Notes: generated by a model from the sequence alone, not told the origin. A DNA stretch of 64,000 nt from Candidatus Anderseniibacteriota bacterium (GCA_021414205.1 JAIOOW010000003.1:364365-428364), one strand, 5' to 3'. Counted from the first letter of the stretch, positions 10,158-39,162 are shown. Made by a program: numbers and translations.

Positions 10158-10877
10158 TTACTGTACAGTATTTCGTAATTCGGTAAGAGACGCAAGGAGG
10201 ATATCGGAAGCCAGTTTTATATTCCCTCCCGGAATGCTTGCTGTTTTGTAGTATTCTTTTAATCTTGTGGCCATTTTTGCTAATTGCATGTTTGAACCGT
10301 ATTGCATCGCATATGCATGCAGTATGCGTTCTATGTCTCGCAATTCTTCATCGGTATATGGCCCAGTTGGCCGTATGGCGGAATATGTTGTAAGCAGCTG
10401 GAGTATATCTATAGGTTCCGCCTTCACTTCCTCTTCATCGCTTAATGCGAGAACTATGCATCGCGATTTGATTGTCGTAAGTACACTCCGCTTTGCGGGA
10501 GAACCCAGTAAAAATCTGGTGGAGACTGCAGATTCTTCGAGCGTTTTCAGTAGCATGTTTGCAGACTCCGGAAGCAGTTGTTCTGCTTGCGGAATACACA
10601 CGATTCGTTTGCCTGAAGTTGGTCTTGAGGAAATAGTTGCTTTAAATGCTTTAATGTCTTTTACGGATATCGTTTTCTTTCCGTCTTCAGCGCGAATCAT
10701 GATCGCATCAGGATGATTGCCGACAGCAGATTGCTTGCCCGGCAATGCATGGGCAATTGCGAATGCGCACAGCTCCTCTAGCTGTTCTTGATTATGGGAA
10801 ATAGCCAGGATCGGCTGTTCTGCGTACGTTGAATCAATCCAAGAACGTATCTGCGTACGAACGCTATCTGGAATCAT
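10158..10877 (-). CDS. holB: DNA polymerase III delta-prime subunit (short form)
   Basis: 239 aa with an AAA+-like clamp-loader fold, LLKTLEE(S) box and TIKSRC sensor motif. Confidence 0.7.
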   Translation of the reverse strand: MIPDSVRTQIRSWIDSTYAEQPILAISHNQEQLEELCAFAIAHALPGKQSAVGNHPDAIMIRAEDGKKTISVKDIKAFKATISSRPTSGKRIVCIPQAEQLLPESANMLLKTLEESAVSTRFLLGSPAKRSVLTTIKSRCIVLALSDEEEVKAEPIDILQLLTTYSAIRPTGPYTDEELRDIERILHAYAMQYGSNMQLAKMATRLKEYYKTASIPGGNIKLASDILLASLTELRNTVQ

Positions 10878-11746
10878 TTTCGCTTTGAAATGTAGTACAG
10901 GAGCGGCGGTGCTACGAAGATAGATGAATATGCTCCCGTGATAATGCCGATAATAAGCGCTACTACGAACCAGCGAATGGACGATCCTCCGAAAATTAAT
11001 ACAGCAGTCAACGAGAGTAGTGTTGTAAGCGATGTGTTAATGGATCGTCCCATTGTTAGAATGAGCGCGCGGTCTATTACTTCTAAGAAGCTCTTGCCTC
11101 GTGATGCCATCCATTCCGATCGCAATCTGTCGAATATGACAATCGTATCGTTTACGGAATATCCCAAGATGGCAAGCTGAGCGGTAATAAATAGCGTATC
11201 AATTTCTGCTCCCCACAATTTACCAAACACTACGAAGAATGCCGTTACCAAGAACAGGTCATGAACTAATGCGTAGATAGCTGCCACGCCGAATTTCCAT
11301 GGAGCAAGGAGTCCGCTCGCGTTTCTGAACGTGTATGCCAAGTAGATAATCATTACTACGAGCACGATGACGATAGCGTTTGTTGATTTGGATCGAAGTT
11401 CTTTTCCGATTGTCGGACCGATTTGCTCGAATGCAATTTCCTTACCCGTCATAATTTTTGCATCTTGCAACGTGGTAATAATTTTCGTATGAGTTGCATC
11501 ATCGATAGACGGAGTTTTAATTCGAATGGTTCCATCTTGCGTACCCTCCGCCTGCGCTTCGATATGGAATTGATTTGCTAGGAGCTGCTTCACCTCATCT
11601 GATTTTTCAGGATTAGCCTGGATTTCTATGGATGATCCGCCGGTAAAGTCAATGCCGAAGTTGGGCTTGATGGCGAAAATGAGAATCGTACTGACGATAA
11701 TTGTCGTTACTGATATAGTCATCCAGATTTTAGGATTCTTCATCAT
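10874..11746 (-). CDS. secF: protein translocase subunit SecF
   Basis: 290 aa with 6 TM segments and the SecD/SecF C-terminal motif. It lies downstream of secD with a 3-nt gap. Confidence 0.85.
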   Translation of the reverse strand: MMKNPKIWMTISVTTIIVSTILIFAIKPNFGIDFTGGSSIEIQANPEKSDEVKQLLANQFHIEAQAEGTQDGTIRIKTPSIDDATHTKIITTLQDAKIMTGKEIAFEQIGPTIGKELRSKSTNAIVIVLVVMIIYLAYTFRNASGLLAPWKFGVAAIYALVHDLFLVTAFFVVFGKLWGAEIDTLFITAQLAILGYSVNDTIVIFDRLRSEWMASRGKSFLEVIDRALILTMGRSINTSLTTLLSLTAVLIFGGSSIRWFVVALIIGIITGAYSSIFVAPPLLYYISKRK

Positions 11747-11748
11747 AG

Positions 11749-13098
11749 CTAGTTGGAAGACTGTTTAATTGCTTTAGCGCCAAGCAAGAACGGCGTATGG
11801 GTTTTCGGATTCATAAACACAATATTAAGGATGCCGCGGCTTACCGTAATTGCGGTAAACATCGATAGGATAATTCCGAGCGAGAATGTGAGTGCGAACC
11901 CTCGTACAATAGATGTTCCGAATCCGTACAGTACGAATCCTGTAATCAAGCTTGAAATGTTTGATGCTGAAATGGAACTCCATGCGGCAGAAAATCCTTC
12001 TTTAAGCGCGAAGGAAACTGTTTTTCCGCTTCTTACGTTTTCTCTGAATCGCTCAAAGATCAGTACGTTGGCATCCACGGCCATTCCGATGGACATAATG
12101 AAGCCCGCAATACCTGCAAGGGTGAGTGTGACGGGGATTAATTTCATGATTGCGAAAAAGAGTGTGACATAAATGAGGAGCGCAATAGATGCGATAACGC
12201 CCGGTAATCGGTATCTGAATACGAGCCATGCAATAACGGCGATAATGCCAACTAGCCCCGCTCTCATGCTTTTTGTGATAGCAGTTTGCCCAAGGCTCGG
12301 GCTGATAACGCTTTGGCCGATCAATTCAATTGGTACTGGTAATGCCCCGGAGTTTAATCCTCGAACAATTTGCTTCGCTTCATCGAGCGTGTAGCTTCCG
12401 GTAATGACTGCTCGCCCATCAGGAATGGCGGACTGCACCGTTGGAGCTTGGATGATGGCGCCGTCTAAGTAAATGGCGATTTGTTTTCCGATATTGTCTT
12501 TCGTAATTTGGGCGAATAGCTTTGTACCATCTGCATCAAAATTGAGGGTAATTTGTGGTTGGCCTGTCGTTTGGTCGAATTCAACAGTAGCTTTTTTCAA
12601 GTTTTTTCCAGATAATCCTGTCGGAACAAATACGTCCGTGGTGAGTGCGCTGTTTCCAGCTTGCGCTTGGATTGCTTTTAACTCATCCGTCGTCGGCTCT
12701 CGTCGAAAATCCAAAGTCGGAGTTTGTCCGATCTGTGCCTTTGCCTGTTCTGGGTCTTGTACTCCTGCAAGCTCCACGATAACGCGGTACTGGCCTTGTA
12801 CGACGCTCGTTTGGATGAGCGGTTCAGATACGCCGAACGCGTTTACTCTGCGTTCAATAACGTCTCGGACGCCGGCAAGCGCTTCGGTAGGGTCCTCTCC
12901 GTTTGTTTTATCGATATCCGCCTTATATTCCAATCGAGTTCCTCCCTTTAAATCTAAGCCCAGCTTTACATTTAAATCGCGACTAAAGCTTCCAAGCGAA
13001 ATACTAGGATGTTTCGGGCTATCTACCCATCCTGCAAGGCCGACAACAATAGCCAATACAACCCCCCACATAATCGTTCTTCTGGTACTTCGTAACAT
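11749..13098 (-). CDS. secD: protein translocase subunit SecD
   Basis: 449 aa with an N-terminal TM segment, a periplasmic domain, and a C-terminal 6-TM SecD/F core. Confidence 0.85.
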   Translation of the reverse strand: MLRSTRRTIMWGVVLAIVVGLAGWVDSPKHPSISLGSFSRDLNVKLGLDLKGGTRLEYKADIDKTNGEDPTEALAGVRDVIERRVNAFGVSEPLIQTSVVQGQYRVIVELAGVQDPEQAKAQIGQTPTLDFRREPTTDELKAIQAQAGNSALTTDVFVPTGLSGKNLKKATVEFDQTTGQPQITLNFDADGTKLFAQITKDNIGKQIAIYLDGAIIQAPTVQSAIPDGRAVITGSYTLDEAKQIVRGLNSGALPVPIELIGQSVISPSLGQTAITKSMRAGLVGIIAVIAWLVFRYRLPGVIASIALLIYVTLFFAIMKLIPVTLTLAGIAGFIMSIGMAVDANVLIFERFRENVRSGKTVSFALKEGFSAAWSSISASNISSLITGFVLYGFGTSIVRGFALTFSLGIILSMFTAITVSRGILNIVFMNPKTHTPFLLGAKAIKQSSN

Positions 13099-17161: not shown

Positions 17162-19825
17162 TTACTTCCCATGGCACTTCTTAAACTTCTTTCCTGATCC
17201 ACACGGGCATGGGTCGTTGCGACCGACATCTTTGTATGGATTATGGAGCGTGCCTTCTGAATCGGTATTTTGTGCGGGTTGTGACGCTGCAGATGGCTGT
17301 GGCGATGTGGTTCCAGAAGATGCTAATTGATGCACGCTGGCTGCTTCCGCATGCTGCGCTATTCCTGCAGGTTCATCGATTGCCAAGCCTGCTGGCGCAT
17401 TATGGAAATGCGCATGGCCGGGGCCTTGTACTTCCGCGCGCAGAACTGTTTCAAGGAGTGCGCCTTTAATAGTGCCGAGCAATTCTTGGAATAATCGGTG
17501 GCCTTCTTTTTGATATTCTACTAAGGGATCGCGCTGGCCGTATCCGCGCAGGCCAATACCCGTGCGTACATAATCCATCGTATCTAAGTGGTCCATCCAT
17601 AATGAATCGATAGAACGTAGTGCTGCAGCTTGTTCTAATTGCTTCATCGTATCTTCGCCAAGCGCTTCGTGTTTTTCTTGAATCTTTCCTGCTAAAATAT
17701 TTCCTACTTCAATTGTTACGGCATCGCGCGCAGCTTCCGGTCCGCTCGCATTTTCTTTTGCAATAAGATCAGATAGATTGGTATGCGTTTCCGCAGTCGG
17801 CGTATTTGTAAGTGCATGGAGGGACTCTGCAATTTCTTTCACGTTCCAATCTTCTACTTGAGCGCTGGCTGTGTGTACTCCAATGAGCGAGCTTGCTTGC
17901 TCCCGTGCTAATTCCAAAATACGTTCATGGATGGAGATTGCATCTTGGTTTGGTTCTTTCCAAGTTGAAGATTCGAGTAGAGATCGGCGCAATGTATAGA
18001 TTGCAATACGCTGCTTATTGAGTACGTTGTCGTACGACAATACTTGCTTACGCATATCAAAGTAGTATCCCTCTACGCGTTCCTGCGCACCCTCTAAGGC
18101 TCGGCTTACTAGCCCATTTTCAATCGGTTCATCTTCGGGAACGTTGAGGCGTTCCATTAAGCTTTTGATTTTCGATCCGCCGAATACGCGCATCACGTCG
18201 TCTTCCATACTCACGTAGAATTGCGTTTCTCCCGGGTCGCCTTGTCGTCCGGATCGTCCGCGAAGCTGGTTATCGATACGGCGCGCTTCGTGCCGTTCTG
18301 TTCCAAGAACGGTGAGTCCGCCTAACTGCGCAACGCCATCTCCTAATTTAATATCTGTACCTCGCCCTGCCATGTTGGTGGAAATGGTGACGGCGCCCTT
18401 CTTGCCCGCTTGCGCAATAATTTCCGCTTCTCTTGCGTGGTGCTTCGCGTTGAGCACTTCATGGGGAACGCCTTTTTGTTTGAGCAATTCTGAAATATAC
18501 TCAGATTTTTCAATAGCAATCGTACCAACCAATACCGGCTGACCTTTTGCATGACGAGCGGCAATGTCTTCAACTAATTGGCGGAACTTCGCTTTCTCGT
18601 TCACGTATACACGATCCGTTTTATCGATACGGGTAAGTTTTTGATTCGTAGGCACGACTACAACATCGAGATTATATACTTGCTCGAACTCTTCTGCAGA
18701 AGTTACAGCTGTTCCTGTCATGCCACCGATGTGCTTATATAATCTGAAAAAGTTTTGGAATGTAATAGACGCAAGCGTGCGGCTTTCTTGCTGCACTTCT
18801 ACGCGCTCTTTTGCTTCAAGCGCCTGATGTAATCCATCGGAATATCTGCGCCCATCCATAAGTCGGCCGGTGAATTCATCAACGATGACAACTTTGCCAT
18901 CTTGAACGATATAGTCTTTATCTTTGTGATAGAGCGTTTGCGCGCGGAGTGCCTGCTCCAAATGATGGACGAATCGGATGCCTTTTTCCGCGTAGATATT
19001 TTCTATGCCGAGATTTTTTTCGACAAACGTAACCCCTTCGTCGGTAAGCGTTGCAGCTTTTCGTTTTTCATCTACGTTATAGTGGGTATCTTCTGAAAGA
19101 AGCGGAATGATTCTGGAGAATTGGTCGTACAGGTTAGTAGAATCTTGGTCAGGTGCGGAAATAATAAGCGGCGTTCGAGCTTCGTCGATCAGGATGCTGT
19201 CTACTTCGTCCACGAGTGCATAATACAATTCCCGCTGAGCTAATTGCTCTACGCTCTGCGCCATGTTGTCGCGCAAATAATCGAATCCGAATTCGTTGTT
19301 TGTTCCATAGGTAATATCGCACGCGTATGCTTCGCGTTTTTGCTGAGGAGATTGTCCGGCTTGGATGACGCCTAGGGTAAGTCCGAAGAATTCGTAGACC
19401 GGGCGCATCCATTCGGCGTCGCGAGATGCGAGGTATTCGTTGGCCGTGACTAAGTGAGCGCCCTTTCCTGCTAGCGCGTTTAATGTGAGCGGCAGTGTTG
19501 CCACTAATGTTTTACCTTCTCCCGTTTTCATTTCCGCAATACTGTCTTTGAGCAGCGCCAATCCTCCAATTAACTGCACGTCAAAATGGCGCATGTTTAA
19601 AATACGCTTGGACGCTTCGCGAACACCTGCAAAGATTTCGGGAATGTGCTTGTCGATTTCGGCTCGATCCTTTCCTTTAAATTTCGCAACGTATTCTTTT
19701 AAATCCGCATCTGAAAGCTTGGAAACAGTTGCTTCTAATGCATTAATTTGCGCAACCACGGGCCGATACGCTTCAGCGGCCTTTTCGTGGCGCGAGGCCC
19801 CTCGAAAAATATCAAACAATGCCAT
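17162..19825 (-). CDS. secA: preprotein translocase ATPase SecA
   Basis: 887 aa with DEAD-like motor motifs and a C-terminal zinc-binding tail (CPCGSGKKFKKCHG). Confidence 0.95.
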   Translation of the reverse strand: MALFDIFRGASRHEKAAEAYRPVVAQINALEATVSKLSDADLKEYVAKFKGKDRAEIDKHIPEIFAGVREASKRILNMRHFDVQLIGGLALLKDSIAEMKTGEGKTLVATLPLTLNALAGKGAHLVTANEYLASRDAEWMRPVYEFFGLTLGVIQAGQSPQQKREAYACDITYGTNNEFGFDYLRDNMAQSVEQLAQRELYYALVDEVDSILIDEARTPLIISAPDQDSTNLYDQFSRIIPLLSEDTHYNVDEKRKAATLTDEGVTFVEKNLGIENIYAEKGIRFVHHLEQALRAQTLYHKDKDYIVQDGKVVIVDEFTGRLMDGRRYSDGLHQALEAKERVEVQQESRTLASITFQNFFRLYKHIGGMTGTAVTSAEEFEQVYNLDVVVVPTNQKLTRIDKTDRVYVNEKAKFRQLVEDIAARHAKGQPVLVGTIAIEKSEYISELLKQKGVPHEVLNAKHHAREAEIIAQAGKKGAVTISTNMAGRGTDIKLGDGVAQLGGLTVLGTERHEARRIDNQLRGRSGRQGDPGETQFYVSMEDDVMRVFGGSKIKSLMERLNVPEDEPIENGLVSRALEGAQERVEGYYFDMRKQVLSYDNVLNKQRIAIYTLRRSLLESSTWKEPNQDAISIHERILELAREQASSLIGVHTASAQVEDWNVKEIAESLHALTNTPTAETHTNLSDLIAKENASGPEAARDAVTIEVGNILAGKIQEKHEALGEDTMKQLEQAAALRSIDSLWMDHLDTMDYVRTGIGLRGYGQRDPLVEYQKEGHRLFQELLGTIKGALLETVLRAEVQGPGHAHFHNAPAGLAIDEPAGIAQHAEAASVHQLASSGTTSPQPSAASQPAQNTDSEGTLHNPYKDVGRNDPCPCGSGKKFKKCHGK

Positions 19826-28818: not shown

Positions 28819-30279
28819 CTATCTCGTTGGGTTTACTTGGATGTTTATCCTCTGCTGGATAGACGGGATGCTTTGGACCCAGAATGGCCATAATTTGAGG
28901 TCTACGGTTTGTGCGCCAGGCAAATTCTGGAGGTACGTTGTTGCGTCGTCTTTACTTCTCCCCACGAGCTTGTCTTTGAGGGTATCGAGGGAAACGTTCG
29001 GAATCGTTGAGTGGGTTACTCGGGCAGTGACGTTTGCAACGCCTTTATCCCAATCAACAGAATCAACGGACTTGGTGAACGATATTGGGCCGGGGAATAG
29101 CGTGGTGTTTGGAGGCAGATTAGAAGCAAGGGCTGATTGCAATACGCTATTTAAGGCGCTTTCTTGATATGCGAATACTCGAGCAGTGGCTGTTGCAGTA
29201 AACACGATGTTTTCTGCCTTATCCCCCGTTTTCTGTGCGGGAGCAAAAGAATCTAGTTTTATGTCCCAACTTTCCTCCATTAATGACCATCCGGACTGTA
29301 ATTGTGCTTTTGCGGCTTGCTCAACCTGGGCCTTTGCTTGTGCTTTTGCGGCTTCGTGGGCAGCGTCTAGGTCGCTATCCGCAACAACCTTCACTTGTTG
29401 ACCAGATCCGCCAGTAAATGCTGTTTCAACTTGCCCATACACAACTGCTTTTGCAGAGCCGTCTAATGCTGCAAAGTCGAGGCGTTGCGGCGTTAGATTG
29501 CCCTGGTCGCCAGCGTCTGCTGCCTCCACTTCTACTGTTGCGCTTGAAACGCTACTTCCTGAAGATGCGGGAATGATTGCTGGTGATTGCATGTAAAATA
29601 TTGCGCCGTCTTTGGTCGCAAGCCTGCTTTGCGCTTTAATTTTTTGCGTATCGAATGTTTTATTGAAAATTCGTACCGTTCCCTTGGCCTTCGTGCCAAT
29701 TGTTTGCGTCGTAGTTACGGGGGATCCGCCCTGAATTTGTACCTGTTGAGAAAATACTGTTCCAGGAACGGCATTCGGTACTGCCGCGGCATTTGTCGCA
29801 ATGCTTAATTTTTGATCAACTAAAAGAGGTGCTGTTTGGATATTGAGAGCAATGTTGGCAGATGGCAAGAATATAAACGCTGCAATTCCGGCAACAACAA
29901 GAACAACGGCGCTAAGCGCCATGGCAATTTTAGTCTCTTTTGTGCCTAATAGCATTGCTGGTTTGAATGTTTTTGTCTTCTTTATTTTTTTAGCTTTTTC
30001 CGTTTTTTTTGGAATTACTGCGAATAATGGTCGTTTTTCCATTGCGATAGCAGGTTCCTTTTTTGACTGCTTTTCTGGCACCATCTGCTTAGGAACATGT
30101 ACGGTAGTGATCGGAATTTGCGAGCCGGCAAAGCGTCGAACGGAGCTTTTTGCAGTCGGTTTTTTTGCTGCGATTTTGCTCGCATGCTTTTCGTATAGCT
30201 TCTTGGCTTCTTCTGGCAACTCTTCTGGAATATCCTTTCGAGAAAATGACGGTTTTTTGTTTGAGGTAATGTCGCGCAT
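28819..30279 (-). CDS. hypothetical single-pass membrane protein, lysine-rich cytoplasmic N-terminus, large Ala/Gln-rich extracytoplasmic domain
   Basis: 486 aa. It occupies the slot upstream of infA where secY-adk-map normally sit. No family recognised. Confidence 0.5.
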   Translation of the reverse strand: MRDITSNKKPSFSRKDIPEELPEEAKKLYEKHASKIAAKKPTAKSSVRRFAGSQIPITTVHVPKQMVPEKQSKKEPAIAMEKRPLFAVIPKKTEKAKKIKKTKTFKPAMLLGTKETKIAMALSAVVLVVAGIAAFIFLPSANIALNIQTAPLLVDQKLSIATNAAAVPNAVPGTVFSQQVQIQGGSPVTTTQTIGTKAKGTVRIFNKTFDTQKIKAQSRLATKDGAIFYMQSPAIIPASSGSSVSSATVEVEAADAGDQGNLTPQRLDFAALDGSAKAVVYGQVETAFTGGSGQQVKVVADSDLDAAHEAAKAQAKAQVEQAAKAQLQSGWSLMEESWDIKLDSFAPAQKTGDKAENIVFTATATARVFAYQESALNSVLQSALASNLPPNTTLFPGPISFTKSVDSVDWDKGVANVTARVTHSTIPNVSLDTLKDKLVGRSKDDATTYLQNLPGAQTVDLKLWPFWVQSIPSIQQRINIQVNPTR

Positions 30280-30320: not shown

Positions 30321-32240
30321 CTACTCCAGTACAGCCTTTATTCGACGCACCCCTGCTGATGCTGATTCTTCTTTGGTAATTTTAAACTTTCCGAGCACTC
30401 CAGTGTGCTCCACATGCGGGCCTCCGCAAATTTCGCACGAGAAATCGCCCATCGTATACACGGAAACGGTATCTCCGTATTTGTGTTCAAAAAGTCCGAG
30501 TGCGCCTTTTCGTTTCGCTTCATCTACGCTCATTTCTTCTCGGGTAACCTGCATGTCTTTTTGAATCTGTTCGTTTACCAAGTCCTCGGTTTGCTTGATT
30601 TGTTCCGGCGTCATTTTTTCTGGATGAGAGAAATCGAACCTGAGCCGTTCCGGCGTAATATTACTTCCTTTTTGCTGCACATGATCGCCTAAAATAGTTT
30701 TCAGCGACTTGTGTAGTAAGTGCGTCGCCGTGTGATACTTAACCGACATTTCGGAATGATCTGATAAGCCCCCTTTAAACTTTCCAGCTGATGCGGTGCG
30801 AGATAGATCTTGGTGTTTTTTCATATTGTCGTCGAACTCTTTTTGAAACCCTAATGTATCCACTGTCTTCCCGCTCTTTTGAGCTTCCTCGATAATCATT
30901 TCAATTGGGAATCCGTACGTAGAATATAATTCAAATGCCTGTTGGCCGTTTACATCTCCGCTATTTTGAAGAATTTGTTCAAGTTTTAATAAGCCAGTAC
31001 GTAATGTTTTTCCAAATTTTTCTTCTTCTTTAAGAATCTCGGATAAAATAATTTCTTTGCGTTCTGCCAATATTGGGTATGCTTCTGAATATGATGAAAT
31101 GACAGATGCGGCTAATTCAGACAAAAACGGCTTATCGATAGCAAGGAATCTACCAAAGCGAACCGCTCTACGAAGCAGCCGGCGAGCAAAGTAACCCTGA
31201 TCTTTTTTATCCGGCACTACCTCATCACCAATTAAAAATGTTACGGCACGGATGTGATCCATGATTACACGAAATGATGCTTTCTCCGGGCCGCTATATT
31301 CTTTGCCGGATATTTTTTCTAGTGAAGCTATGAGTGGCGCAAAAATATCTATTAAAAACACATCGGGTGTATCTGCAACTGCGGCAGTAAGGCGTTCTAG
31401 TCCACCGCCGAAATCAACGTTCCGCTGAGGCAGTTCTTCGAAACCGGAATTCGTTTTTATGTATTGCATGAAAACGTTGTTTCCAATTTCCATAAACCGT
31501 CCGCAGTCGCAGTTTACGTGGCAGGGTTGGTCTTTAAACGGGGATGATTCGTGCAGCGATTCGTCGTTTGGCGAAAAATCCCAAAACATTTCTGTGTCTG
31601 GGCCGCCTGGCTCCCCTATGGGCATATTTTCTGGAACACCAGCGCGGGACCACCAATTCTTTTTTTCTCCGTACGAAAAAATTCGTCCGTCTTGCATGCC
31701 GTTTTCCTCAGAATTATCTACTAGCTTTGCATCGATATTTTTTTTAGCAAAAGATTTTTTCCATAACTCCGCGCTTTCCGTGTCTTTTGGAATGCCGATT
31801 GCGTCATTGCCAGCAAAGATGGTTACATAGATTCTATTTGCATCTAACCCTAAGCCTTTTTTCGAATCCGTTAAAAATTCAAACATCCAAGGGATCTGGT
31901 CCGCTTTAAAATAATCTCCCAGCGACCAATTCCCCAACATTTCAAAAAAAGTGGTGTGGCGATTATCTCCAATGTCATCGATGTCTTGCACGCGCAGGCA
32001 CTTCTGCGAGTCTGTAATCCTTGTTCCATTGGGATGTTTTTGCCCAAGCAAGTAGGAAATCATCGGCTGCATGCCGGAGCCGGTAAATAATGTGGTTGGA
32101 TCATTTTCCGGAACGAGTCGCGCAGACGCAATAATCGCATGCTGTTTGGATGCAAAAAAATCTAAGTATTTTTTTCGAACGTCGTTGAGCGATAGATTTT
32201 CCATGTACCCTAGCGTAGCAGGGCTGGTGTCCAAGTTCAA
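30321..32240 (-). CDS. alaS: alanyl-tRNA synthetase, short form lacking the C-terminal C-Ala/DHHA1 domain
   Basis: 639 aa with the catalytic core and an editing domain carrying HTATHLLH and CGGPHV metal motifs. The protein ends right after the editing domain. Confidence 0.88.
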   Translation of the reverse strand: MNLDTSPATLGYMENLSLNDVRKKYLDFFASKQHAIIASARLVPENDPTTLFTGSGMQPMISYLLGQKHPNGTRITDSQKCLRVQDIDDIGDNRHTTFFEMLGNWSLGDYFKADQIPWMFEFLTDSKKGLGLDANRIYVTIFAGNDAIGIPKDTESAELWKKSFAKKNIDAKLVDNSEENGMQDGRIFSYGEKKNWWSRAGVPENMPIGEPGGPDTEMFWDFSPNDESLHESSPFKDQPCHVNCDCGRFMEIGNNVFMQYIKTNSGFEELPQRNVDFGGGLERLTAAVADTPDVFLIDIFAPLIASLEKISGKEYSGPEKASFRVIMDHIRAVTFLIGDEVVPDKKDQGYFARRLLRRAVRFGRFLAIDKPFLSELAASVISSYSEAYPILAERKEIILSEILKEEEKFGKTLRTGLLKLEQILQNSGDVNGQQAFELYSTYGFPIEMIIEEAQKSGKTVDTLGFQKEFDDNMKKHQDLSRTASAGKFKGGLSDHSEMSVKYHTATHLLHKSLKTILGDHVQQKGSNITPERLRFDFSHPEKMTPEQIKQTEDLVNEQIQKDMQVTREEMSVDEAKRKGALGLFEHKYGDTVSVYTMGDFSCEICGGPHVEHTGVLGKFKITKEESASAGVRRIKAVLE

Positions 32241-32794
32241 TCCGGCTGCTGAGTGATCATAGTGTCCACGTCGCTTGGAAGCACTCGCGATGTAAACTGG
32301 AGAGATTCCTTATATGGGTTCGGCCAAGATGCATGGATAGGTCCCTCGAATTTATCTAGATATTCTCGAGCTTCTTCGTTTGTCTTTTCTCCGATGGCGA
32401 TGTCGTGCGCCAAGTTGAGTATTAAAATATTTGCATGTTCGCTTTCGCAGAATGCAGTCATTTCCCCTCGAGTTCTGTCTATAATCACGCTTCCGTCGAA
32501 TGCAACAATATCGTCGACTTTTTGTTCTGGAATTTTCGCATCGACTGTTTGTTCCAGGATATCGATGTGGGGGTGAGGTACGTTGTGTCGGACGCCGTCC
32601 CGATGCAGAACGGTTTGTTTCCATGGTCCATTGTAGTGCCAAATGAGCATTGTTTGAGTGGCTTCGTGAGGCATTCCGTATGAGCGGATCAATTCGCCTG
32701 CAAGCTTGCGTGACGCAGAAGGCCAATTCGAAACAAGGTCGAGTACTGCAGACCCTTGAATTCGCTGATTACTAATTCTCGTCATCCCATGCAT
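32237..32794 (-). CDS. hypothetical protein (~182 aa)
   Basis: ORF with a 4-nt overlap to alaS. No family recognised; the probable start is at MTRI. Confidence 0.4.
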   Translation of the reverse strand: MHGMTRISNQRIQGSAVLDLVSNWPSASRKLAGELIRSYGMPHEATQTMLIWHYNGPWKQTVLHRDGVRHNVPHPHIDILEQTVDAKIPEQKVDDIVAFDGSVIIDRTRGEMTAFCESEHANILILNLAHDIAIGEKTNEEAREYLDKFEGPIHASWPNPYKESLQFTSRVLPSDVDTMITQQPD

Positions 32795-32866
32795 ACTCTC
32801 AATATCCGTATATTTTATACGTATGTCAACCTACAAAAAAAGAATTTCGACAAAAAAATATGACAG

Positions 32867-33574
32867 TTAGAAGTATTTTCTTTCCTTGCTTTCTTTTATA
32901 ATATCAAAAGCTTCCTCCGGGGTGTCTACGATAGCGTATAAGTCTATGTCCTCAGGAGAAATTGTTTTGAAGGTTTGAACAAGCGATGTTCGAATCCATG
33001 TGTCGAGTGGTTCCCAAAATTCTTTTCCGACGCAAATAACAGGCACGCCATTCATCTTTTTTGTCTGGATGAGCGTAATCATTTCAAAGAATTCATCGAG
33101 CGTGCCGAATCCTCCCGGAAAAAATACGTATGCCTGCGCGGATGCAGACAGCATTACTTTTCGAGTGAAAAAATAGTGAAACCCAATTCCCTTTTTCACA
33201 TATGCATTACGGCGTTGTTCTGTTGGGAGTTGAATATCGAGGCCAATGGATTCTCCTCCACCCTCATATGCACCCCTATTTCCCGCTTCCATAATACCTG
33301 GTCCTCCGCCGGTAATAACGGTGAATTGATTTTCAGCAAGCAAGCGCCCTAATGCTCGCGCAACGTTATACCACTTGTCTGTTTCGGGCAGTCTTGCAGA
33401 TCCGAAAAATGTAACTTCTTTTCTGAGTGGATATAAAAATTCGAATCCGTCTACGAATTCCGCCATGATGCGGAAAATTCTCCAGTTCGCATCCTCGGTA
33501 AAATCAAATGGCCGATCAATCGGAAATTTGCTGTGATCGGAAGGATCGTATCGCATGAAATAAGTATAGCACAC
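32867..33574 (-). CDS. LOG family protein (cytokinin riboside 5'-monophosphate phosphoribohydrolase-like / TIGR00730 Rossmann protein)
   Basis: Signature VITGGGPGIMEAGNRGAYEGGG…GGFGTLDE. The start is ambiguous between M1 and MRYDPSD. Confidence 0.8.
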   Translation of the reverse strand: MCYTYFMRYDPSDHSKFPIDRPFDFTEDANWRIFRIMAEFVDGFEFLYPLRKEVTFFGSARLPETDKWYNVARALGRLLAENQFTVITGGGPGIMEAGNRGAYEGGGESIGLDIQLPTEQRRNAYVKKGIGFHYFFTRKVMLSASAQAYVFFPGGFGTLDEFFEMITLIQTKKMNGVPVICVGKEFWEPLDTWIRTSLVQTFKTISPEDIDLYAIVDTPEEAFDIIKESKERKYF

Positions 33575-35488
33575 CTATATCTTTGGCGGTCGTGGCGGTG
33601 TGTAGTTTTGGATGTCGTCTATTTTTGATGGCGTGATCGGAGGAAGTGAATTCTTGGGCGAAGCTTGCTCTCGGGAATCAATCTTCGGCTTATTTGCATC
33701 AAGCAGCTTAGCGCGTTTGCGCTCGTCGTAACATTCTTTACAGAACACTTCTTTTTCCGGGTCCGGTTTGAACGGAACTTCCGTATGCTTTCCGCAATTA
33801 GAACAAGTAGCCGGATATAGTTTTACTGAGGGTTTATGCTTTTCTTCTGAATGCGTGCGCGTGTTGTTAGGTGGTACGGCAGGTGAAGTTGGGGCATCGT
33901 CAGTAGCATCGTCGCTCGTATCCTCTTTTCTGCCTAACAGTGCTGAGAGATCCGTAATCATTTCTTGTTTTGCAGGGGCGATGACAATATCTTCCAATTC
34001 ATCCGGTTTTTCTTGAACTGGTGTGAATGCTTTTTTATCTACGTGCTCTTGTCGCGGTTTATTTTCTTGCTTTGTTGGTGTTTGAGTGTTTGGAACATTT
34101 GATGCAGGTCGATTAGGTGTTTGTCGCGATTGAGATTGATTATTTTGCGGTTGCCCTTGCTTGCCAAGAAAAATTTGCGGCTTAGGGGACTGTTCCCCGT
34201 TTTCTTGAGCTCCTAAGGTTGAGCTGCTCCATCGTGCAATTTTTTCCTCGATTTCTTTTCGAGGCGATCCGTATCGTTCTCTCGAAACGCGTAATACTTT
34301 TTCTTTACTATTATATGTTTCTGCTACTGGTGCAATCGTTTCCATAGAGAACGGAGCGCTCGTAGCGCCTTTTATCATGAGTTTGATATACGCATTATAT
34401 TTATCCAAGTTCACTAAATCCGTTTGGGTAAAGTACGGCATAAATTCTTTTTCGAGATATTCCGCATCGAATGCACCCACGCGGAACGAGATTATTGTTC
34501 CTACGTTTCCGAATACGGCATCACGCACCACCTCTTCCATCTGCGTAATGTATTGATGAGCGATTATTAAATTGAGGCGATACTTTCGAGCCTCGGAAAG
34601 AATTGTTGCGAATGATTCGGTAGCGAAATTTTGAAATTCGTCGACGTATAGATAGAAGTCTCGTCGCTGCGCTTCCGGAATACTTGCGCGATCCATGGCT
34701 GCAAGTTGGAGCTTGGTAATAAGCATGGCGCCGAGCAAAGCGGAGTTATCTTCTCCGATACGTCCTTTTGAAACGTTAATAAGAAGAATTTTCCCGTTAT
34801 CCATAATATCCTTCATGTCGATCGTGCTTTTCGGTTGTGCGACGATATTGCGGATAATGGACGAACTTAAGAATTGCCCGACTTTGTTTTGGATCGGAGA
34901 AATTGCCTCGCTTCTGAATCGTTCGTTGTAATTGGCGAATTCGTTTACCCAAAAAGCTTTTACTACTGGGTCCGTGATTGTTTCTACCACTTTTGAGCGA
35001 TAGCTTTTATCCGCAAGCATGCGCATGATGCCAAGCATTGTTGAGGACGGGTAATCAAGAAGAGCTAAAATAACATTTCGGAGAATGTATTCCAATCGCG
35101 GCCCCCAAGAATCTGCCCAGATTTTTTTCAGCGAGCTTACTAGCCCTGATGCTACTAAGTATTTATATTGCGGATCAACGGATTCGAGCGGATTAAATGC
35201 AACAGGAAAATCCACATCCGCGGGGTCAAAGTACACAACGTCATTAATGCGTTCCGGTGGAATGATATCCAAAATCTTTTCAGCAACGTCTCCGTGAGGG
35301 TCTACAAGCGCAAGGCCGCGCCCAAGCTTAACGTCCTGAATAATCATATTTTCGAGCAACGTCGTTTTGCCCACGCCCGTTTTTCCAATTACATATACGT
35401 GGCGCCTGCGATCATCGGTATAAATACCAAATGGTTTTCGTTGATGACGAAAGTTCGTTTGTCCTACTACGGTAATTTCATCAAGCAT
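33575..35488 (-). CDS. DUF87/HerA-FtsK-superfamily P-loop ATPase (type IV coupling-protein-like) with low-complexity linker and C-terminal C4 zinc ribbon
   Basis: Walker A GKTGVGKTT is followed by the DUF87-typical LVDPHGD. The Walker B motif is LYVDEFQNF. The C-terminal ~200 aa are Pro/Gln/Asn/Lys-rich and end in CSNCGKH…x17…CKECY. I place the start at the internal Met, overlapping the upstream gene by 8 nt. Confidence 0.7.
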   Translation of the reverse strand: MLDEITVVGQTNFRHQRKPFGIYTDDRRRHVYVIGKTGVGKTTLLENMIIQDVKLGRGLALVDPHGDVAEKILDIIPPERINDVVYFDPADVDFPVAFNPLESVDPQYKYLVASGLVSSLKKIWADSWGPRLEYILRNVILALLDYPSSTMLGIMRMLADKSYRSKVVETITDPVVKAFWVNEFANYNERFRSEAISPIQNKVGQFLSSSIIRNIVAQPKSTIDMKDIMDNGKILLINVSKGRIGEDNSALLGAMLITKLQLAAMDRASIPEAQRRDFYLYVDEFQNFATESFATILSEARKYRLNLIIAHQYITQMEEVVRDAVFGNVGTIISFRVGAFDAEYLEKEFMPYFTQTDLVNLDKYNAYIKLMIKGATSAPFSMETIAPVAETYNSKEKVLRVSRERYGSPRKEIEEKIARWSSSTLGAQENGEQSPKPQIFLGKQGQPQNNQSQSRQTPNRPASNVPNTQTPTKQENKPRQEHVDKKAFTPVQEKPDELEDIVIAPAKQEMITDLSALLGRKEDTSDDATDDAPTSPAVPPNNTRTHSEEKHKPSVKLYPATCSNCGKHTEVPFKPDPEKEVFCKECYDERKRAKLLDANKPKIDSREQASPKNSLPPITPSKIDDIQNYTPPRPPKI

Positions 35489-36776
35489 ATGGAAGGTTTG
35501 CAGGAGGGTTTTTATGACCAGCCTTTGCCCGATCAACTCCAGGGGTTGTTACATACTTCACTGGGAAATGGTATATGGTTGCCAGCTCTTCAGCATTCAT
35601 AATCTGTCCGGAATCTGTTCCAAAAAAATCCCGCCACTGAAAATTCAGCAAAGCATTGCGTTCTTTTAACCATCTGCGCCGATCTTTCATGAAAAATCCA
35701 GGACCGTTCGTCTTTGTTTCTTTGTCTGGTGAGAAAGAGTTTAAATGCGCTGCCGTAAATTGCTTGAATACGCCGAATCCGCGAGAAATATTTGGCTTTT
35801 TTAATTGTCCTACCGGTGCAATATGCACGACGCGTACTTTCGTTTTGTATCCGTTGCTGGAAATTTTTTGTAAAATAGACTTCATTTTTGCGTCATCGAC
35901 AGGATTGAAGAAGCGAAGAACTTTCTCTTCTTTTTTTGTTTCTATCTCAATAGGACCCTTAAACACTGCTTGAAAGAATTCGCTCGGAAGCGCGGAGATG
36001 AATTCTTTTGCGTTGTCCCACATACCCGGCTTTGGTTTTGAAGCTTGTCCTGAAATTTCTGCAATTTTTTTCTCTCCTCTTTTCTCCCACTTTTTAATAT
36101 CGCTTCCGGAGATGGGGCGAACAAGCACCTGGACCCAGAATTCCTCGCCTGGCTCCACGTTTGTGAGTGTTTCCAAAATGATCTGCATCGGATCAACAAA
36201 CGGAATATTTTCCGCTAAGCTTGCTTCGAATTCCTTGTATGTCTTTATAGGAAGGATGTCATCCTCCGTAAGAATAATATCGGCTCCCCACATCTCGAAT
36301 TTAGTTCGCAAATCCTCAACATTATATCGCTGAGTATAATCTTCTACTTCCTGGATATCTGCCTTTGGGTATTGCGCGTATATAATTGCCTCAAATAATC
36401 GTCTATGTGCGGTTGGTATAACGATAATAAACTTTGCTGATTGTTGGGTGCAGTATATCTCGAAGCTGGCCCATGCTTCTAGATATCCGTCAAAATATTT
36501 TTCGTTGATATCGGGGCCCTTGTGTATGCCTCCCATAACTTCAAAGATAACTTCCATAGAGCGAGGCGTTTCCTCCGTTTCTTCGGGGAGAGTGATTTGG
36601 TAGAATGTCCATTCGATGGCGCTCACATAGTCCACCATTTTTAGGAGGAGATATGTTTTCCATGCGATCCACATAACCATCCAGACCACAAGAAGCCATC
36701 CGAATGTGAGGATAGTCGGCCCAAATTGCTGAGCAAAATCAGAGAAGGTGTACTCCATTCCCCTATTGTACTGCAA
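35481..36776 (-). CDS. hypothetical membrane protein (2 N-terminal TM helices plus ~370-aa soluble domain), translationally coupled partner of the DUF87 ATPase
   Basis: 431 aa with an N-terminal hairpin TM (…ILTFGWLLVVWMVMWIAW…). No family recognised. Confidence 0.55.
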   Translation of the reverse strand: MQYNRGMEYTFSDFAQQFGPTILTFGWLLVVWMVMWIAWKTYLLLKMVDYVSAIEWTFYQITLPEETEETPRSMEVIFEVMGGIHKGPDINEKYFDGYLEAWASFEIYCTQQSAKFIIVIPTAHRRLFEAIIYAQYPKADIQEVEDYTQRYNVEDLRTKFEMWGADIILTEDDILPIKTYKEFEASLAENIPFVDPMQIILETLTNVEPGEEFWVQVLVRPISGSDIKKWEKRGEKKIAEISGQASKPKPGMWDNAKEFISALPSEFFQAVFKGPIEIETKKEEKVLRFFNPVDDAKMKSILQKISSNGYKTKVRVVHIAPVGQLKKPNISRGFGVFKQFTAAHLNSFSPDKETKTNGPGFFMKDRRRWLKERNALLNFQWRDFFGTDSGQIMNAEELATIYHFPVKYVTTPGVDRAKAGHKNPPANLPYA

Positions 36777-36791
36777 ATTTTCGTTTAATGC

Positions 36792-37811
36792 TTACGCGAG
36801 CGTGTATAAATCGTTTTCTGCTTTTTTGAACTTCGTATTGTTCTGCAACGATAGCAATACCGTATTTTTCTTTACCATTCGCTGTTTGAGCACTGCTTGA
36901 AGAAGCTCGTCTTTAGACATCGGCTTTCCTGTTTCTTTCAAGATGGAAATCAGCACGTCGGCAACAGTTCCTGCCATAAAGCCCCATTCTTTGAGTCCGT
37001 ACAATCCTCGTCCAACTAATACGAATCGGCCATCTTTAATAAGTTCGTTATGAACGGTTTGTGGGTTTGCTTTCTTGTGATCGAAGCTTGCTTGGTTAAT
37101 CATTTCGGTGATTTCTCGGAAATGCGCAGGTTTGCCATTGCGTCGAAGAACTGCGAATGCTTTGTCGCCTACACCGCGAGGTGAAGTTTCTGCCCAGCCG
37201 ATAAGTCCCCAGTCCCCGAATGCTGTAGGAGAAATATTCTTGCTTGCGTGCAGAGCTGCATGAATATGCGTATCTGGCACTACTGTTCCCTGTGCTGCAG
37301 AACGGATTTCGTTTACGAGTTGCTCGATTGTAATAGGTGCGTTGTTTTTCTTGAGCACTTCCATTGCCATAATAACGATTTTCTCAATATTTTCATGGAG
37401 TGATGCTGGGTGTTGCCAATGAGTTTCAAAGAGAGAGGTTGGCGCAACAGTCGTAAATGATGGAAGAATCGTTAAGAAGAAATGAATAGTATGAGCATCA
37501 ACTGCCTGACCTGTTCGTTCTTGAATGACATTCACTGCGTGAGTTTCGGACATTAATCCGCCGTGCTCTGCAAAAATATCTGCAAGCATCTGCTCTGCTG
37601 AAGCAAGAAGGTCTCGCATCGAGGTAAGCTCTTTTTTTGCATTTGCTTCAATTTGTCGAACGCGCTCTCGAGTAATTCGGTACTCTTTTCCAATGCTTTC
37701 TAGTGTTTCTTTTTCTTCTTTTCCAATACCAAAACGACGGACAATAATATCGCGAGAGCGAGTGTCGAGGCGCGCAAGCAAATCTTCGGCTGTCTTAGAG
37801 AAATTAATCAT
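36792..37811 (-). CDS. sigma-70 region-4 HTH protein fused to three HARE-HTH-like repeats (putative RNAP-associated factor)
   Basis: The N-terminus (…RDIIVRRFGIGKEEKETLESIGKEYRITRERVRQIEANAKKEL…) matches sigma70 region 4. It is followed by three repeats ending in GDWGLIGW, DGRFVLVGRGLYGLKEW and NDLYTLA, resembling the HARE-HTH of RNAP delta subunit (RpoE). Confidence 0.6.
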   Translation of the reverse strand: MINFSKTAEDLLARLDTRSRDIIVRRFGIGKEEKETLESIGKEYRITRERVRQIEANAKKELTSMRDLLASAEQMLADIFAEHGGLMSETHAVNVIQERTGQAVDAHTIHFFLTILPSFTTVAPTSLFETHWQHPASLHENIEKIVIMAMEVLKKNNAPITIEQLVNEIRSAAQGTVVPDTHIHAALHASKNISPTAFGDWGLIGWAETSPRGVGDKAFAVLRRNGKPAHFREITEMINQASFDHKKANPQTVHNELIKDGRFVLVGRGLYGLKEWGFMAGTVADVLISILKETGKPMSKDELLQAVLKQRMVKKNTVLLSLQNNTKFKKAENDLYTLA

Positions 37812-37917
37812 ATATACCTTTTTAGCATATCATGTAAATATTGTCAATATAGCACTAACAACTTATGACTATACTACGTATTATTTGATATGTCTAGTAT
37901 GGCAAAGTTGGATACTG
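37812..37917. promoter_or_regulatory. promoter/operator region upstream of the sigma-r4/HARE gene with two TTGACA-containing palindromes
   Basis: tgtcaacttttcttgaca (TGTCAA-N6-TTGACA) lies at ~37907-37924 and atattgtcaatat at ~37842-37854. The minus strand reads TTGACA-17-TAAAAA followed by aaaggtatatATG. Confidence 0.35.
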
Positions 37918-39162
37918 TCAACTTTTCTTGACAATGGCTCGCATTCTGCCATCGAGCGTACCGGCACTGAAAATAATTGCTATACAAGGCTTTTTTTGAG
38001 CTATTGACTCGGTAAGTTTCGTATCATCGAATATGCATTCTGCGGGCGTATTTTTAGCCTCAATGGCATCCTGTAATCTGTAGGCGTCTTCTAATGACTG
38101 CTCGTCTCGGCCGGTGGGGATAAACGGTTTTGTGATGATTACTTCGTCTGCTTGAGCCAATGCATCGGCGAAATTGTCAAAAAACGTATGAAGTCGCTTC
38201 GGCATATGGGCTTCAAATACCGCAACAATATGTGCTCCTGGCGCAAATTCGCGCGCTCCTTGCAATGTTGCTTGTATTTCTGCGGGATGATGGCCGTAAT
38301 CCGATCGAATTTCAACCTTCCCAACAGTTCCGAGTAGTTCAAATCTGCGCGCTAGCCCTGGGAATGTTGTAAGTGATGTAATTGCCCGTTTTCTGTCTAC
38401 TCCCAATTTTTCTGCCAGCGCAACGGCGAGGCTGGCATTTTGCCGCATGTGTTTGCCTGGCAAAGGAACGCGAAGCTTTTCTTCCTCAGATGTTGGAATG
38501 ATGTGCGTATCTACTGGCCATGAAATATTCATATGCGCACTATGTTCTGTTTCGGGAACAAAAATAGAACCTCCTGGCTTGAGTGATTGCATGAAATGTT
38601 CGTACGATTTCTCCACATCCGCTAATCCGGTAAATGCGTCGGGGTGGTCGTAGTCAATCGATGTAATGATGATGTCGTTCGGCGCGAGTGCGTAAAAGTG
38701 ATTGCGGTATTCATCTGCTTCTACTACGAAATACTTTCCTTTGCCGTATCGTGCATGCTTCCCTGGTAGGCTTGGCATTGAGGCGCCGACTACAACTGTC
38801 GGATCGAGTCCCGCTTCAATGAGAATGTGCGCAAGGAATGCGGTAGTAGATGACTTACCGTGCGTGCCGGTAACAGCAAGCGTGTGATAGTGGCTTGTAA
38901 TATGCCCTAGAAATTCATGATAGGCCGATTCTGTTTTCCCAGTCTTCCTGAATGCGGCGCGCAAAGGATGCTCAAACGGTGCGGCATCCGTATATATGAG
39001 CGATGTAATTTCGGGAAGCTTTTCAAGAACTTCTGCTTGTGTGTATTTCGAAAATTCTGGATTATCGTCATATCCAACAACGGTCATGCCGTCTTGTTCT
39101 GCAAGGTATGCAACTGCGCGCATGCCAGCTCCGCCAATTCCAACAAAAAGTAATGTTTCCAT
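37918..39162 (-). CDS. murC: UDP-N-acetylmuramate--L-alanine ligase
   Basis: 414 aa; Mur ligase N-terminal Rossmann (GIGGAGM), GTHGKSSTT P-loop, and C-terminal domain. Confidence 0.85.
   Translation of the reverse strand: METLLFVGIGGAGMRAVAYLAEQDGMTVVGYDDNPEFSKYTQAEVLEKLPEITSLIYTDAAPFEHPLRAAFRKTGKTESAYHEFLGHITSHYHTLAVTGTHGKSSTTAFLAHILIEAGLDPTVVVGASMPSLPGKHARYGKGKYFVVEADEYRNHFYALAPNDIIITSIDYDHPDAFTGLADVEKSYEHFMQSLKPGGSIFVPETEHSAHMNISWPVDTHIIPTSEEEKLRVPLPGKHMRQNASLAVALAEKLGVDRKRAITSLTTFPGLARRFELLGTVGKVEIRSDYGHHPAEIQATLQGAREFAPGAHIVAVFEAHMPKRLHTFFDNFADALAQADEVIITKPFIPTGRDEQSLEDAYRLQDAIEAKNTPAECIFDDTKLTESIAQKKPCIAIIFSAGTLDGRMRAIVKKS

Follow-up and report, generated by a model that had tools for sequence, protein, structure and literature searches.

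A three-gene module on the minus strand of a 64,000-nucleotide stretch of a Candidatus Anderseniibacteriota genome (GCA_021414205.1 JAIOOW010000003.1:364365-428364; the whole stretch is referred to here as the window) comprises, at positions 33575-37811, three co-oriented open reading frames (ORFs), which encode a protein with a sigma region 4 and a HARE-HTH domain (gene 1), a membrane-anchored partner protein (gene 2) and a P-loop ATPase (gene 3). On balance, we lean towards reading genes 2 and 3 as a type IV coupling protein (T4CP) that now consists of two separate polypeptides and has been domesticated in the Patescibacteria core chromosome, where it probably feeds the type IV secretion system (T4SS) of these bacteria. 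The gene pair is split and translationally coupled, and in plasmids of Bacillaceae, more weakly in an actinomycete plasmid, partner and ATPase form a single polypeptide at the T4CP position. Each of the three ORFs has thousands of homologues, with E values down to 0, and thus none of them is a chance reading frame.

A coupling-type motor and its proposed membrane module

The ATPase (637 residues; 33575-35488, minus strand) is a soluble, T4CP-like member of the VirB4/VirD4 clade of P-loop ATPases. The motifs quoted in the initial annotation (GKTGVGKTT, LVDPHGD, LYVDEFQNF) are all present; Walker A is read as GKTGVGKT (residues 35-42; 35363-35386, minus strand) and Walker B as YVDEF (residues 281-285; 34634-34648, minus strand), and among 39 ATPase homologues G35, K36, T37, G38, G40 and K41 of the former and Y281, V282, D283, E284 and F285 of the latter are invariant. 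Membership of the FtsK/HerA superfamily was borne out by a P-loop core with T4CP profiles above their cut-offs, but the HerA-type label was corrected: the profiles match T4CP families and not HerA. The scores amount to 33.4 bits for TrwB_AAD_bind (cut-off 20.5; residues 26-320), 27.9 bits for T4SS-DNA_transf (cut-off 20.1) and 31 bits for TraG-D_C (cut-off 22), while DUF87, although above its Pfam cut-off, is the weakest of the four core families. In Pfam no match was obtained to FtsK_SpoIIIE, T2SSE or the VirB4 families (CagE_TrbE_VirB, AAA_10, P-loop_TraG), and T2SSE (PilB/ComGA) remained without a match in Pfam and NCBIfam at E ≤ 0.1; the enzyme is accordingly not the routine FtsK or PilB orthologue that would have refuted the initial reading. 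The best whole-domain NCBIfam match is the VirD4-like CD1115 family, with all NCBIfam T4CP equivalog models far under their cut-offs; TIGR00929 (VirB4) reached 21.5 bits over 23 residues, restricted to the P-loop, at a cut-off of 643, and the weak match to CedD is confined to the P-loop as well. TrwB and DotL were the sole meaningful sequence matches in the PDB. With T4CP profiles matched and VirB4 matched only at the P-loop, the protein is therefore placed as a VirB4/VirD4-clade motor leaning to T4CP.

In the AlphaFold2 (AF2) model, seven helices are found between strands E84-87 and E234-238. They form an all-alpha insertion in the nucleotide-binding domain (approximately residues 106-216; 34841-35173, minus strand), in the position of the all-alpha domain of TrwB/VirD4, so that this T4CP feature is present. 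The N-terminal transmembrane (TM) domain on the same polypeptide, which defines T4CPs, is missing; the ATPase has no hydrophobic segment (Kyte-Doolittle maximum 1.17), nor have 65 of the 67 family members. The features of FtsK/SpoIIIE (motor profile, gamma domain, multi-TM N-terminus) were likewise not found, and neither was the nuclease or effector partner of HerA-type ATPases.

The partner (35481-36776, minus strand) comprises 431 residues when counted from a TTG codon, and probably 425 from the ATG at 36758. It had been described as a protein with two TM segments and a large soluble domain that could not be placed, and both statements are revised here. One hydrophobic segment is present, the TM helix at residues 19-39 (GPTILTFGWLLVVWMVMWIAW; 36660-36722, minus strand), with a Kyte-Doolittle value of 1.89, the sole segment exceeding 1.6, and K-rich residues following it; exactly one such segment was counted in 56 of 77 family members. 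According to the positive-inside rule, the large domain would be cytoplasmic. Its AF2 model, built from a 55-sequence alignment (predicted local distance difference test, pLDDT, 87.8; predicted template modelling score, pTM, 0.83), was compared with known structures. Because P-loop-only chains (the VirB4 C-terminal domain, TrwB) are absent among the structural matches, the fold matched is that of the VirB4 N-terminal domain; in an independent comparison by Foldseek, the top 13 matches were TrwK/VirB4 chains (E 1.8e-5 to 2.5e-3). A sequence-profile search against the PDB returned nothing meaningful (best match FokI, E 0.63), and hhalign of the partner profile against the Gram-positive VirB4-like protein of plasmid pBM69 yielded a probability of 0.1%; the relation to the VirB4 N-terminal domain is thus a purely structural one. 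Judged by the model, the partner is a TM-anchored domain with a VirB4 N-terminal fold, and it corresponds to the detached N-terminal module of the coupling proteins of monoderm plasmids discussed below.

Conservation within the partner peaks at the motif EELATIYHFP (residues 396-405; 35562-35591, minus strand), close to the C-terminus and immediately ahead of the position at which the fused homologues run on into the ATPase. Across the 55 aligned sequences A399, H403 and P405 are invariant, and E396, E397 and T400 are conserved in at least 90%. Homologues sharing 46-91% identity are tagged PF26449.1 in the precomputed table of the database; the window protein itself went unmatched in the local Pfam copy, from which this model is probably missing. 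The family numbers 2,047 word-sharing homologues, most of them with PF26449, and 1,506 clusters at 50% identity, and all named members are hypothetical proteins of Patescibacteria.

A tblastn search with the partner against plasmids matched Bacillaceae replicons, and it is here that the two genes are found as one. An 833-residue 'DUF87 domain-containing protein' from Bacillus methanolicus pBM69 (WP_003349917.1) aligns to both partner and ATPase: its residues 53-314 correspond to partner positions 101-429 (hhalign 98.9%, E 1.9e-17), its residues 346-719 to ATPase residues 28-387 (28% identity, E 6e-43). The partner motif EELATxYHFP is aligned to EEMAAIMRLP of the fusion protein, the N-terminal hairpin of the window ATPase to a segment just past the domain boundary, and the break point of the window pair coincides exactly with the inter-domain boundary of the fused T4CPs. 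Behind the fusion gene, pBM69 carries Replic_Relax, conjugal-transfer genes and, as a gene of its own, an 860-residue AAA_10 VirB4; Bacillus sp. F19 (USK36540.1) shows the same gene order. An Embleya plasmid has the order PrgI, VirB4-like gene, 812-residue T4CP (WP_331738717.1), Replic_Relax and NlpC/P60; this T4CP shares 32% identity with the window ATPase, and the match of its N-terminus to the partner is weak (48.6%, E 1.8e-4). The plasmid-borne fused homologues thus lie in the relaxase/T4SS neighbourhood characteristic of T4CPs. The ATPase family as such was encountered in 309 plasmid records, from Streptomyces, Bacillus, Staphylococcus, Clostridium, haloarchaea and Sulfolobus.

The window pair and the fused T4CPs of monoderm plasmids share the same two modules in the same order, with the ATPases 28-32% identical (E 6e-43 to 7e-67). 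The plasmid proteins consist, however, of one polypeptide encoded beside a relaxase and a VirB4/PrgI T4SS cluster, whereas the window pair is split and chromosomal; the pBM69 protein shows no obvious N-terminal TM helix, and the fused forms have neither a zinc ribbon nor a HARE-HTH neighbour. No experimental characterization of the fused T4CPs was found in the literature searched. The fusion suggests that the pair of Patescibacteria is a split monoderm-type T4CP with a VirB4-like N-terminal domain, in agreement with the published nesting of the Patescibacteria T4SS within the monoderm MPF-FATA clade (PMC12102498). The earlier view that this is not a conjugation locus consequently holds for the locus itself, but not for its ancestry, the relatives being plasmid coupling proteins.

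Further plasmid relatives were noted. Priestia megaterium pFDU301A (L086:4771-7086) and a Pontibacillus plasmid (L081:6971-8242), both Bacillaceae megaplasmids, carry partner-like genes closer to the Patescibacteria form, with 24-25% identity over more than 90% of the partner; the Priestia ORF, which is unannotated and may be a pseudogene, continues into an interrupted ATPase segment that shares 41% identity with the ATPase of the window. Among plasmid relatives, the one nearest to the ATPase core (41.8% identity, E 4e-105) is a stand-alone protein of 395 residues in the alphaproteobacterium Sulfitobacter mediterraneus (L084:5983-7170). Transposases and a recombinase lie on either side of it and no partner-like gene is annotated, a setting which suggests that the motor has at times been transferred horizontally by itself.

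Compared with the classical coupling proteins VirD4, TrwB, TraD and TraG, the window ATPase shares the P-loop domain with its all-alpha insertion, as well as TrwB_AAD_bind, T4SS-DNA_transf and TraG-D_C matches above cut-offs, and it has a long C-terminal tail as in TraD and DotL. In place of their N-terminal two-helix TM domain, a separate one-TM anchor with a VirB4-like domain is provided, and the pair is core chromosomal, with no relaxase or T4SS genes nearby. From VirB4 proper (TrwK of R388; VirB4 of Thermoanaerobacter pseudethanolicus) the motor differs in that VirB4 profiles are unmatched save for the P-loop hit of TIGR00929, and the partner in lacking sequence similarity to the Gram-positive VirB4; Patescibacteria also have a separate, bona fide VirB4 (PMC12102498). 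EccE with EccC of mycobacterial type VII secretion also counts among the closest known systems. In the mechanism proposed, the partner would tether and assemble the ATPase at the membrane, replacing the N-terminal TM domain of classical VirD4, and its VirB4-like domain would dock the motor on the T4SS inner-membrane platform (VirB4/VirB3/VirB6) encoded elsewhere in the genome, by analogy with R388, where VirB4 N-terminal domains contact VirB3, VirB8 and each other.

The operon and its setting across Patescibacteria

Tight linkage and common orientation of the three genes were confirmed. The 637-residue ATPase, read from its ATG, is identical over 100% of its length to a protein from a Candidatus Andersenbacteria metagenome-assembled genome in a database search, and the start was therefore set at ATG 35488 in preference to the longer TTG 35536. 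The ATPase gene begins within the last 8 nt of the partner gene (ATGCTTGA). Between the stop of gene 1 and the TTG of the partner lie 15 nt; since partner homologues have 425 residues and M7 is nearly invariant, the start is probably ATG 36758, which leaves a gap of 33 nt. A promoter and terminator scan of 32700-38100 produced counts not above those of shuffled sequence, and TAGACA-17-TATAGT at 37868-37896, upstream of gene 1, is, at this shuffled-sequence level, a candidate promoter only.

The housekeeping surroundings reported initially were found as described, with LOG, AlaRS, MurC, MurG, FtsW, other Mur ligases, a penicillin-binding protein, SecA, SecD and presumably SecF encoded in the window. 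Base composition is even over the whole window, and nothing suggests a genomic island around the module. Two further ORFs on the minus strand deserve mention. Between LOG and alaS, a 185-residue ORF (32237-32794) without a Pfam match, whose stop overlaps the alaS start by 4 nt, is conserved only in the closest locus, L001 (58% identity). Downstream of alaS, the product of 28819-30279 has 486 residues, a TM segment at the N-terminus and a weak Baseplate_J-like match (E 1.5e-4); its family (f11) recurs beside alaS in seven related loci.

A search with the pattern EE[LI]AT[LIV][YF]HxP over contigs, one genome per species, detected at least 588 loci. From these, 80 were sampled for synteny (L001-L080), with neighbour counts referring to 73 or 65 assessable loci; the sample covers Andersen-, Uhr-, Moran-, Doudna-, Wolfe-, Colwell-, Nealson-, Niyogi-, Yanofsky-, Terry-, Portnoy-, Magasanik- and Buchananbacteria as well as others. 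Relative to the partner, the HARE gene occupies position -1 in 62 of 73 loci, and position +1 is taken by the ATPase in 64 of 73, that is, the genes occur together in approximately 85-88% of assessable loci, which settles in the affirmative the question of co-occurrence in related genomes. SecD and SecF are encoded at -3 and -2 in approximately 40 of 65 loci. All five genes are co-oriented, with median gaps of 74 nt from SecF to HARE, 40 nt from HARE to partner and 16 nt from partner to ATPase; downstream of the ATPase follow efp, mnmA and alaS, and in one lineage comEC. The pair occurs without the HARE gene in L013, L066, L035, L041 and L064. Across lineages the ATPase core retains 56-68% identity, compared with 36-57% for AlaRS of the same loci, 30-40% for the HARE protein and 27-33% for the partner; a motor core more conserved than AlaRS points to strong purifying selection.

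In the window, SecD (confirmed by Pfam), a 290-residue ORF adjoining it (10874-11746) that is presumably SecF, and SecA are encoded within 10874-13098 and 17162-19825 (minus strand), some 14-23 kb downstream of the module. As secD and secF directly precede the HARE gene in most other lineages, the block has been rearranged in Andersenbacteria so as to follow murC. In about 8 of 80 loci, among them L029, L030, L034, L047, L057, L075 and L078, ComEC was noted three to five genes beyond the ATPase and behind efp and mnmA, as separate 'Competence' and metallo-beta-lactamase ORFs (for example L057:13612-14949 and L034:12329-13183). An apparent 1016-residue partner-ATPase fusion without Walker A in L048 was discarded as an artefact of a 100-N run (L048:6657-6756) bridging two genes. 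Nine loci with typical Patescibacteria gene content and synteny (L005, L010, L018, L035, L036, L041, L044, L048, L074) are deposited as 'uncultured Gammaproteobacteria', 'Binatia', 'Bathyarchaeia' or 'Acutalibacteraceae', and many Andersenbacteria-like contigs are titled 'Saccharibacteria'; in view of these probable binning or labelling errors, record titles cannot be used for the taxonomy of the sampled loci.

Gene 1 (36792-37811, minus strand) encodes 339 residues with Sigma70_r4 and three winged-helix domains, one of them HARE-HTH. Both domains had been recognized initially, and both score above the Pfam cut-off, Sigma70_r4 with 47.3 bits (residues 11-60) and HARE-HTH with 60.4 bits (residues 217-276). 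TIGR04567, the model for the RNA polymerase delta subunit, gives 56.6 bits (cut-off 42), and homologues are named 'RNA polymerase delta subunit' (JGI) or 'sigma factor-like HTH DNA-binding protein' (NCBI). In contrast to delta (RpoE), in which an N-terminal HARE-HTH precedes a long acidic tail, the HARE-HTH of gene 1 is internal, and the protein terminates in another winged helix without an acidic tail. With sigma-70 factors it shares region 4 but not region 2, which was absent in Pfam, and the sigma equivalog models of NCBIfam fell far under their cut-offs, aligning at the C-terminal end of the models only. The two extra winged-helix domains distinguish it from both delta and sigma region 4.

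The ATPase tail and its zinc ribbon

The C-terminal tail of the ATPase (residues 426-637; 33578-34213, minus strand) is of low complexity and predicted to be disordered, with pLDDT below 50 over most of residues 424-551 and 601-626 of the AF2 model. Embedded in it are the motif ITDLSALL (approximately residues 511-518) and the terminal PPRPPKI; among the 39 homologues I511, L514 and L518 are invariant, P632 and P635 nearly so. The tails of all orthologues are long and of low complexity, and short motifs recur across lineages, namely a C-terminal LKPGQxVKF and an amphipathic VDLxxLRxxLxExL, with FxGPxPPxL in Andersenbacteria. Adaptor-binding tails, of which those of TraD and DotL are examples, typically show such short motifs within low-complexity sequence.

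The zinc ribbon, a treble clef of the form CxxC-x17-CxxC (residues 562-586, CSNCGKHTEVPFKPDPEKEVFCKEC; 33731-33805, minus strand), matches the profiles PF23477 (zf_Tbcl_2; 51.8 bits) and TIGR04272 (53.4 bits), both above cut-offs, and was modelled at a pLDDT of approximately 90. Its spacing had been given correctly, but the protein does not end with it, as about 50 residues follow. Its conservation, which was to be checked, varies by lineage: the ribbon is present in 36 of 65 orthologues from L001-L080 and is therefore regarded as a lineage-variable accessory. Members of this domain family bind zinc in small proteins of Methanosarcina mazei (PMC12704099). In the proposed mechanism, the disordered tail, with its short motifs and the variable ribbon, would recruit adaptors or substrates, whether DNA or protein, in the manner of the TraD and DotL tails.

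A second T4CP-like ATPase of approximately 480 residues, 40-46% identical to the first and without a zinc ribbon, follows directly after the first in two lineages (L013:8259-9704 and L026:5563-6999). Behind it, a protein starting with a treble-clef zinc finger (zf_Tbcl in L026) is encoded at L026:7098-8810 and L013:9701-10708; zinc-finger modules thus recur beside these motors, fused or separate.

Southlakia data and competing explanations

The sole experimental data for the family come from transposon sequencing (Tn-seq) of Candidatus Southlakia epibionticum ML1 (Wang et al. 2023, PMC10633639). SEML1_0294, with Sigma70_r4 at residues 27-72, HARE-HTH at 225-283 and three winged helices, was essential throughout the three time points. 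The next gene downstream, on the same strand, is SEML1_0293, which encodes a protein of 921 residues with TrwB_AAD_bind at 402-719 within a P-loop domain at 361-795, and no assigned domain in its N-terminal 360 residues. As in the window, a sigma-r4 and HARE-HTH gene thus directly precedes a T4CP-like gene; SEML1_0293 differs from the 637-residue window ATPase with its separate partner in being, to judge only by its length and domain positions, probably the fused form. It was called non-essential, although its normalized reads fell approximately fourfold (5817, 2940, 1372) while those of neighbouring genes remained flat; both genes were flagged as core and Patescibacteria-enriched. The T4SS cluster SEML1_0006-0019, pilins included, was essential and, according to the authors, contains no recognizable coupling protein or relaxase; a second T4CP-like protein, SEML1_0142, was essential as well (PMC10633639). 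No T4SS other than that of Patescibacteria is known to be essential for the organism that carries it (PMC10633639, PMC12857230).

Several of these facts, and others, weigh against a T4CP that serves the T4SS. The initial annotation had noted no relaxase, pilin or VirB4 gene nearby, and none was found in the window; neither recurrent-family analysis nor tblastn detected VirB4, a relaxase or PrgI there or in any of L001-L080, so that the genomic context expected of a T4CP is lacking, and a VirB3 gene was not recurrent near the pair in the 80 loci. In the literature the picture is the same: of 5,713 VirD4-like T4CP homologues in 2,918 of 3,035 Patescibacteria genomes only 148 lie near virB4, and T4CP homologues occur in 96% of genomes but VirB4 in 80% (PMC12102498). 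As the Southlakia T4SS is essential and SEML1_0293 is not, the latter is not required for the essential T4SS function, and a T4SS-independent, exapted role would account for the Tn-seq data just as well. Conservation of the ATPase is very high, unlike that of typical plasmid T4CPs, and would fit a non-secretion housekeeping role; the AF2 model of the ATPase is moderately confident (pLDDT 64.8), with a fold which by itself does not discriminate between VirD4 and VirB4. Agrobacterium VirD4, on the other hand, is dispensable for pilus biogenesis and required for substrate transfer, and because the essential T4SS genes of Southlakia include pilins, the non-essentiality of SEML1_0293 can be reconciled with a role in the T4SS.

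An exapted translocase, in which the split T4CP moves DNA or protein in a housekeeping task, alone or with other envelope machinery, is a reading to be taken seriously, if an unlikely one. It would accommodate the core housekeeping context with its synteny to secD/secF, efp, mnmA and alaS, a motor more conserved than AlaRS, its occurrence in more genomes than VirB4 and rarely close to it, and the contrast between a dispensable SEML1_0293 and an essential T4SS; possible exaptation was indeed flagged by the authors of the genome survey (PMC12102498). Yet no other channel partner is conserved beside the pair, SecDF being absent from many loci and about 20 kb away in the window, the closest characterizable relatives all reside within conjugative T4SS clusters, and dispersal of T4CP genes is common (PMC12102498). 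A motor for DNA uptake, acting through ComEC or the T4SS like archaeal Ced or ComB of Helicobacter pylori, appears distinctly improbable. The downstream ComEC genes, the dependence of Patescibacteria on imported nucleotides (PMC12102498) and a non-essential Tn-seq call, as expected of a competence gene, speak for it, but ComEC is linked in a minority of loci and does not adjoin the pair, the matches to CedD, which could be cited in its favour, span the P-loop only, as do those to VirB4, and the phenotypes differ, since reads of comEC mutants, also non-essential in Southlakia, stay flat (12586, 11147, 12301; PMC10633639). A defence module of the HerA/DUF87 or DndH type is very improbable: PADLOC gave weak and partial matches of the ATPase to mad8 (E 1.8e-16), HerA and DndH and none for the partner, on which grounds this reading was rejected; no nuclease, Sir2 or methylase neighbour exists, tblastn of the partner against phage genomes gave no match, and the pair is near-universal, syntenic and strongly conserved in the sampled lineages, whereas defence systems are patchy and island-borne. 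Hardly credible, finally, is an FtsK/SpoIIIE-like segregation or division translocase, which the position beside murC, murG and ftsW might suggest. In Andersenbacteria (L001-L004) such division and cell-wall genes do adjoin the pair, as does ftsW in L051 and L065, but this neighbourhood is lineage-specific. Patescibacteria retain a bona fide FtsK with 4TM, alpha, motor and gamma domains, and a replacement of FtsK was rejected since that of Southlakia, SEML1_0096, is complete and essential (PMC10633639).

The place of gene 1 has to be considered separately. Its protein might cooperate with the membrane motor in a transcription-linked machine, for example to tether DNA or RNA polymerase at the membrane or to hand either over there, which we hold to be improbable. 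The T4CP tails of classical systems are bound by DNA-binding accessory proteins, with TraM-TraD as the standard example, and this precedent, the adjacency of HARE gene and partner in most loci at a short median gap, its counterpart in a distant Saccharimonadia genome (SEML1_0294/0293), the tail motifs and the zinc ribbon, whose type also occurs in transcription proteins, could be taken as indications of such cooperation. Against this, the HARE gene of Southlakia is essential and the ATPase is not, so that the HARE protein functions without need of the motor; the pair persists in loci lacking the HARE gene, and the plasmid-borne fused homologues have no HARE neighbour. A bolder version, in which all three genes constitute one T4SS-independent, Patescibacteria-specific machine whose HARE factor passes nucleic acid, or a polymerase complex, to the motor via the zinc-ribbon tail, must be considered quite unlikely; if true, it would couple transcription or DNA handling to membrane translocation, perhaps towards the host cell. 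Given the Southlakia phenotypes, gene 1 most likely encodes an essential RNA-polymerase-associated factor in an ancient operon with the pair and not an obligate motor subunit. Functional cooperation with partner and ATPase is doubtful, a functional link of some kind possible in view of an adjacency conserved even in Saccharimonadia.

Returning to the split T4CP, the initial impression of an undescribed system proved partly right. The ATPase family with its abundance in Patescibacteria, the Tn-seq phenotypes and the Pfam accession PF26449 of the partner are already published or in databases; in the literature searched, no account was found of the split architecture, of the VirB4-like partner fold, of the fusion or of the secDF-HARE-partner-ATPase operon, nor of the motif-bearing tail or of the neighbouring gene as a detached VirB4-like N-terminal module. 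A coupling-type motor is identified in at least 588 species-level loci across diverse lineages of Patescibacteria, and its missing membrane module is recognized in a neighbouring gene that lacked a prior function assignment. The gene fusion ties the pair to poorly studied T4CPs of monoderm plasmids with a VirB4-like N-terminal domain, and this architecture, intermediate between VirB4 and VirD4, bears on the divergence of the two T4SS ATPases. A large part of bacterial diversity belongs to the Patescibacteria, which live attached to host cells; with SEML1_0293 and SEML1_0294 present in a genetically tractable organism, a route is offered to what these bacteria move into and out of their hosts.

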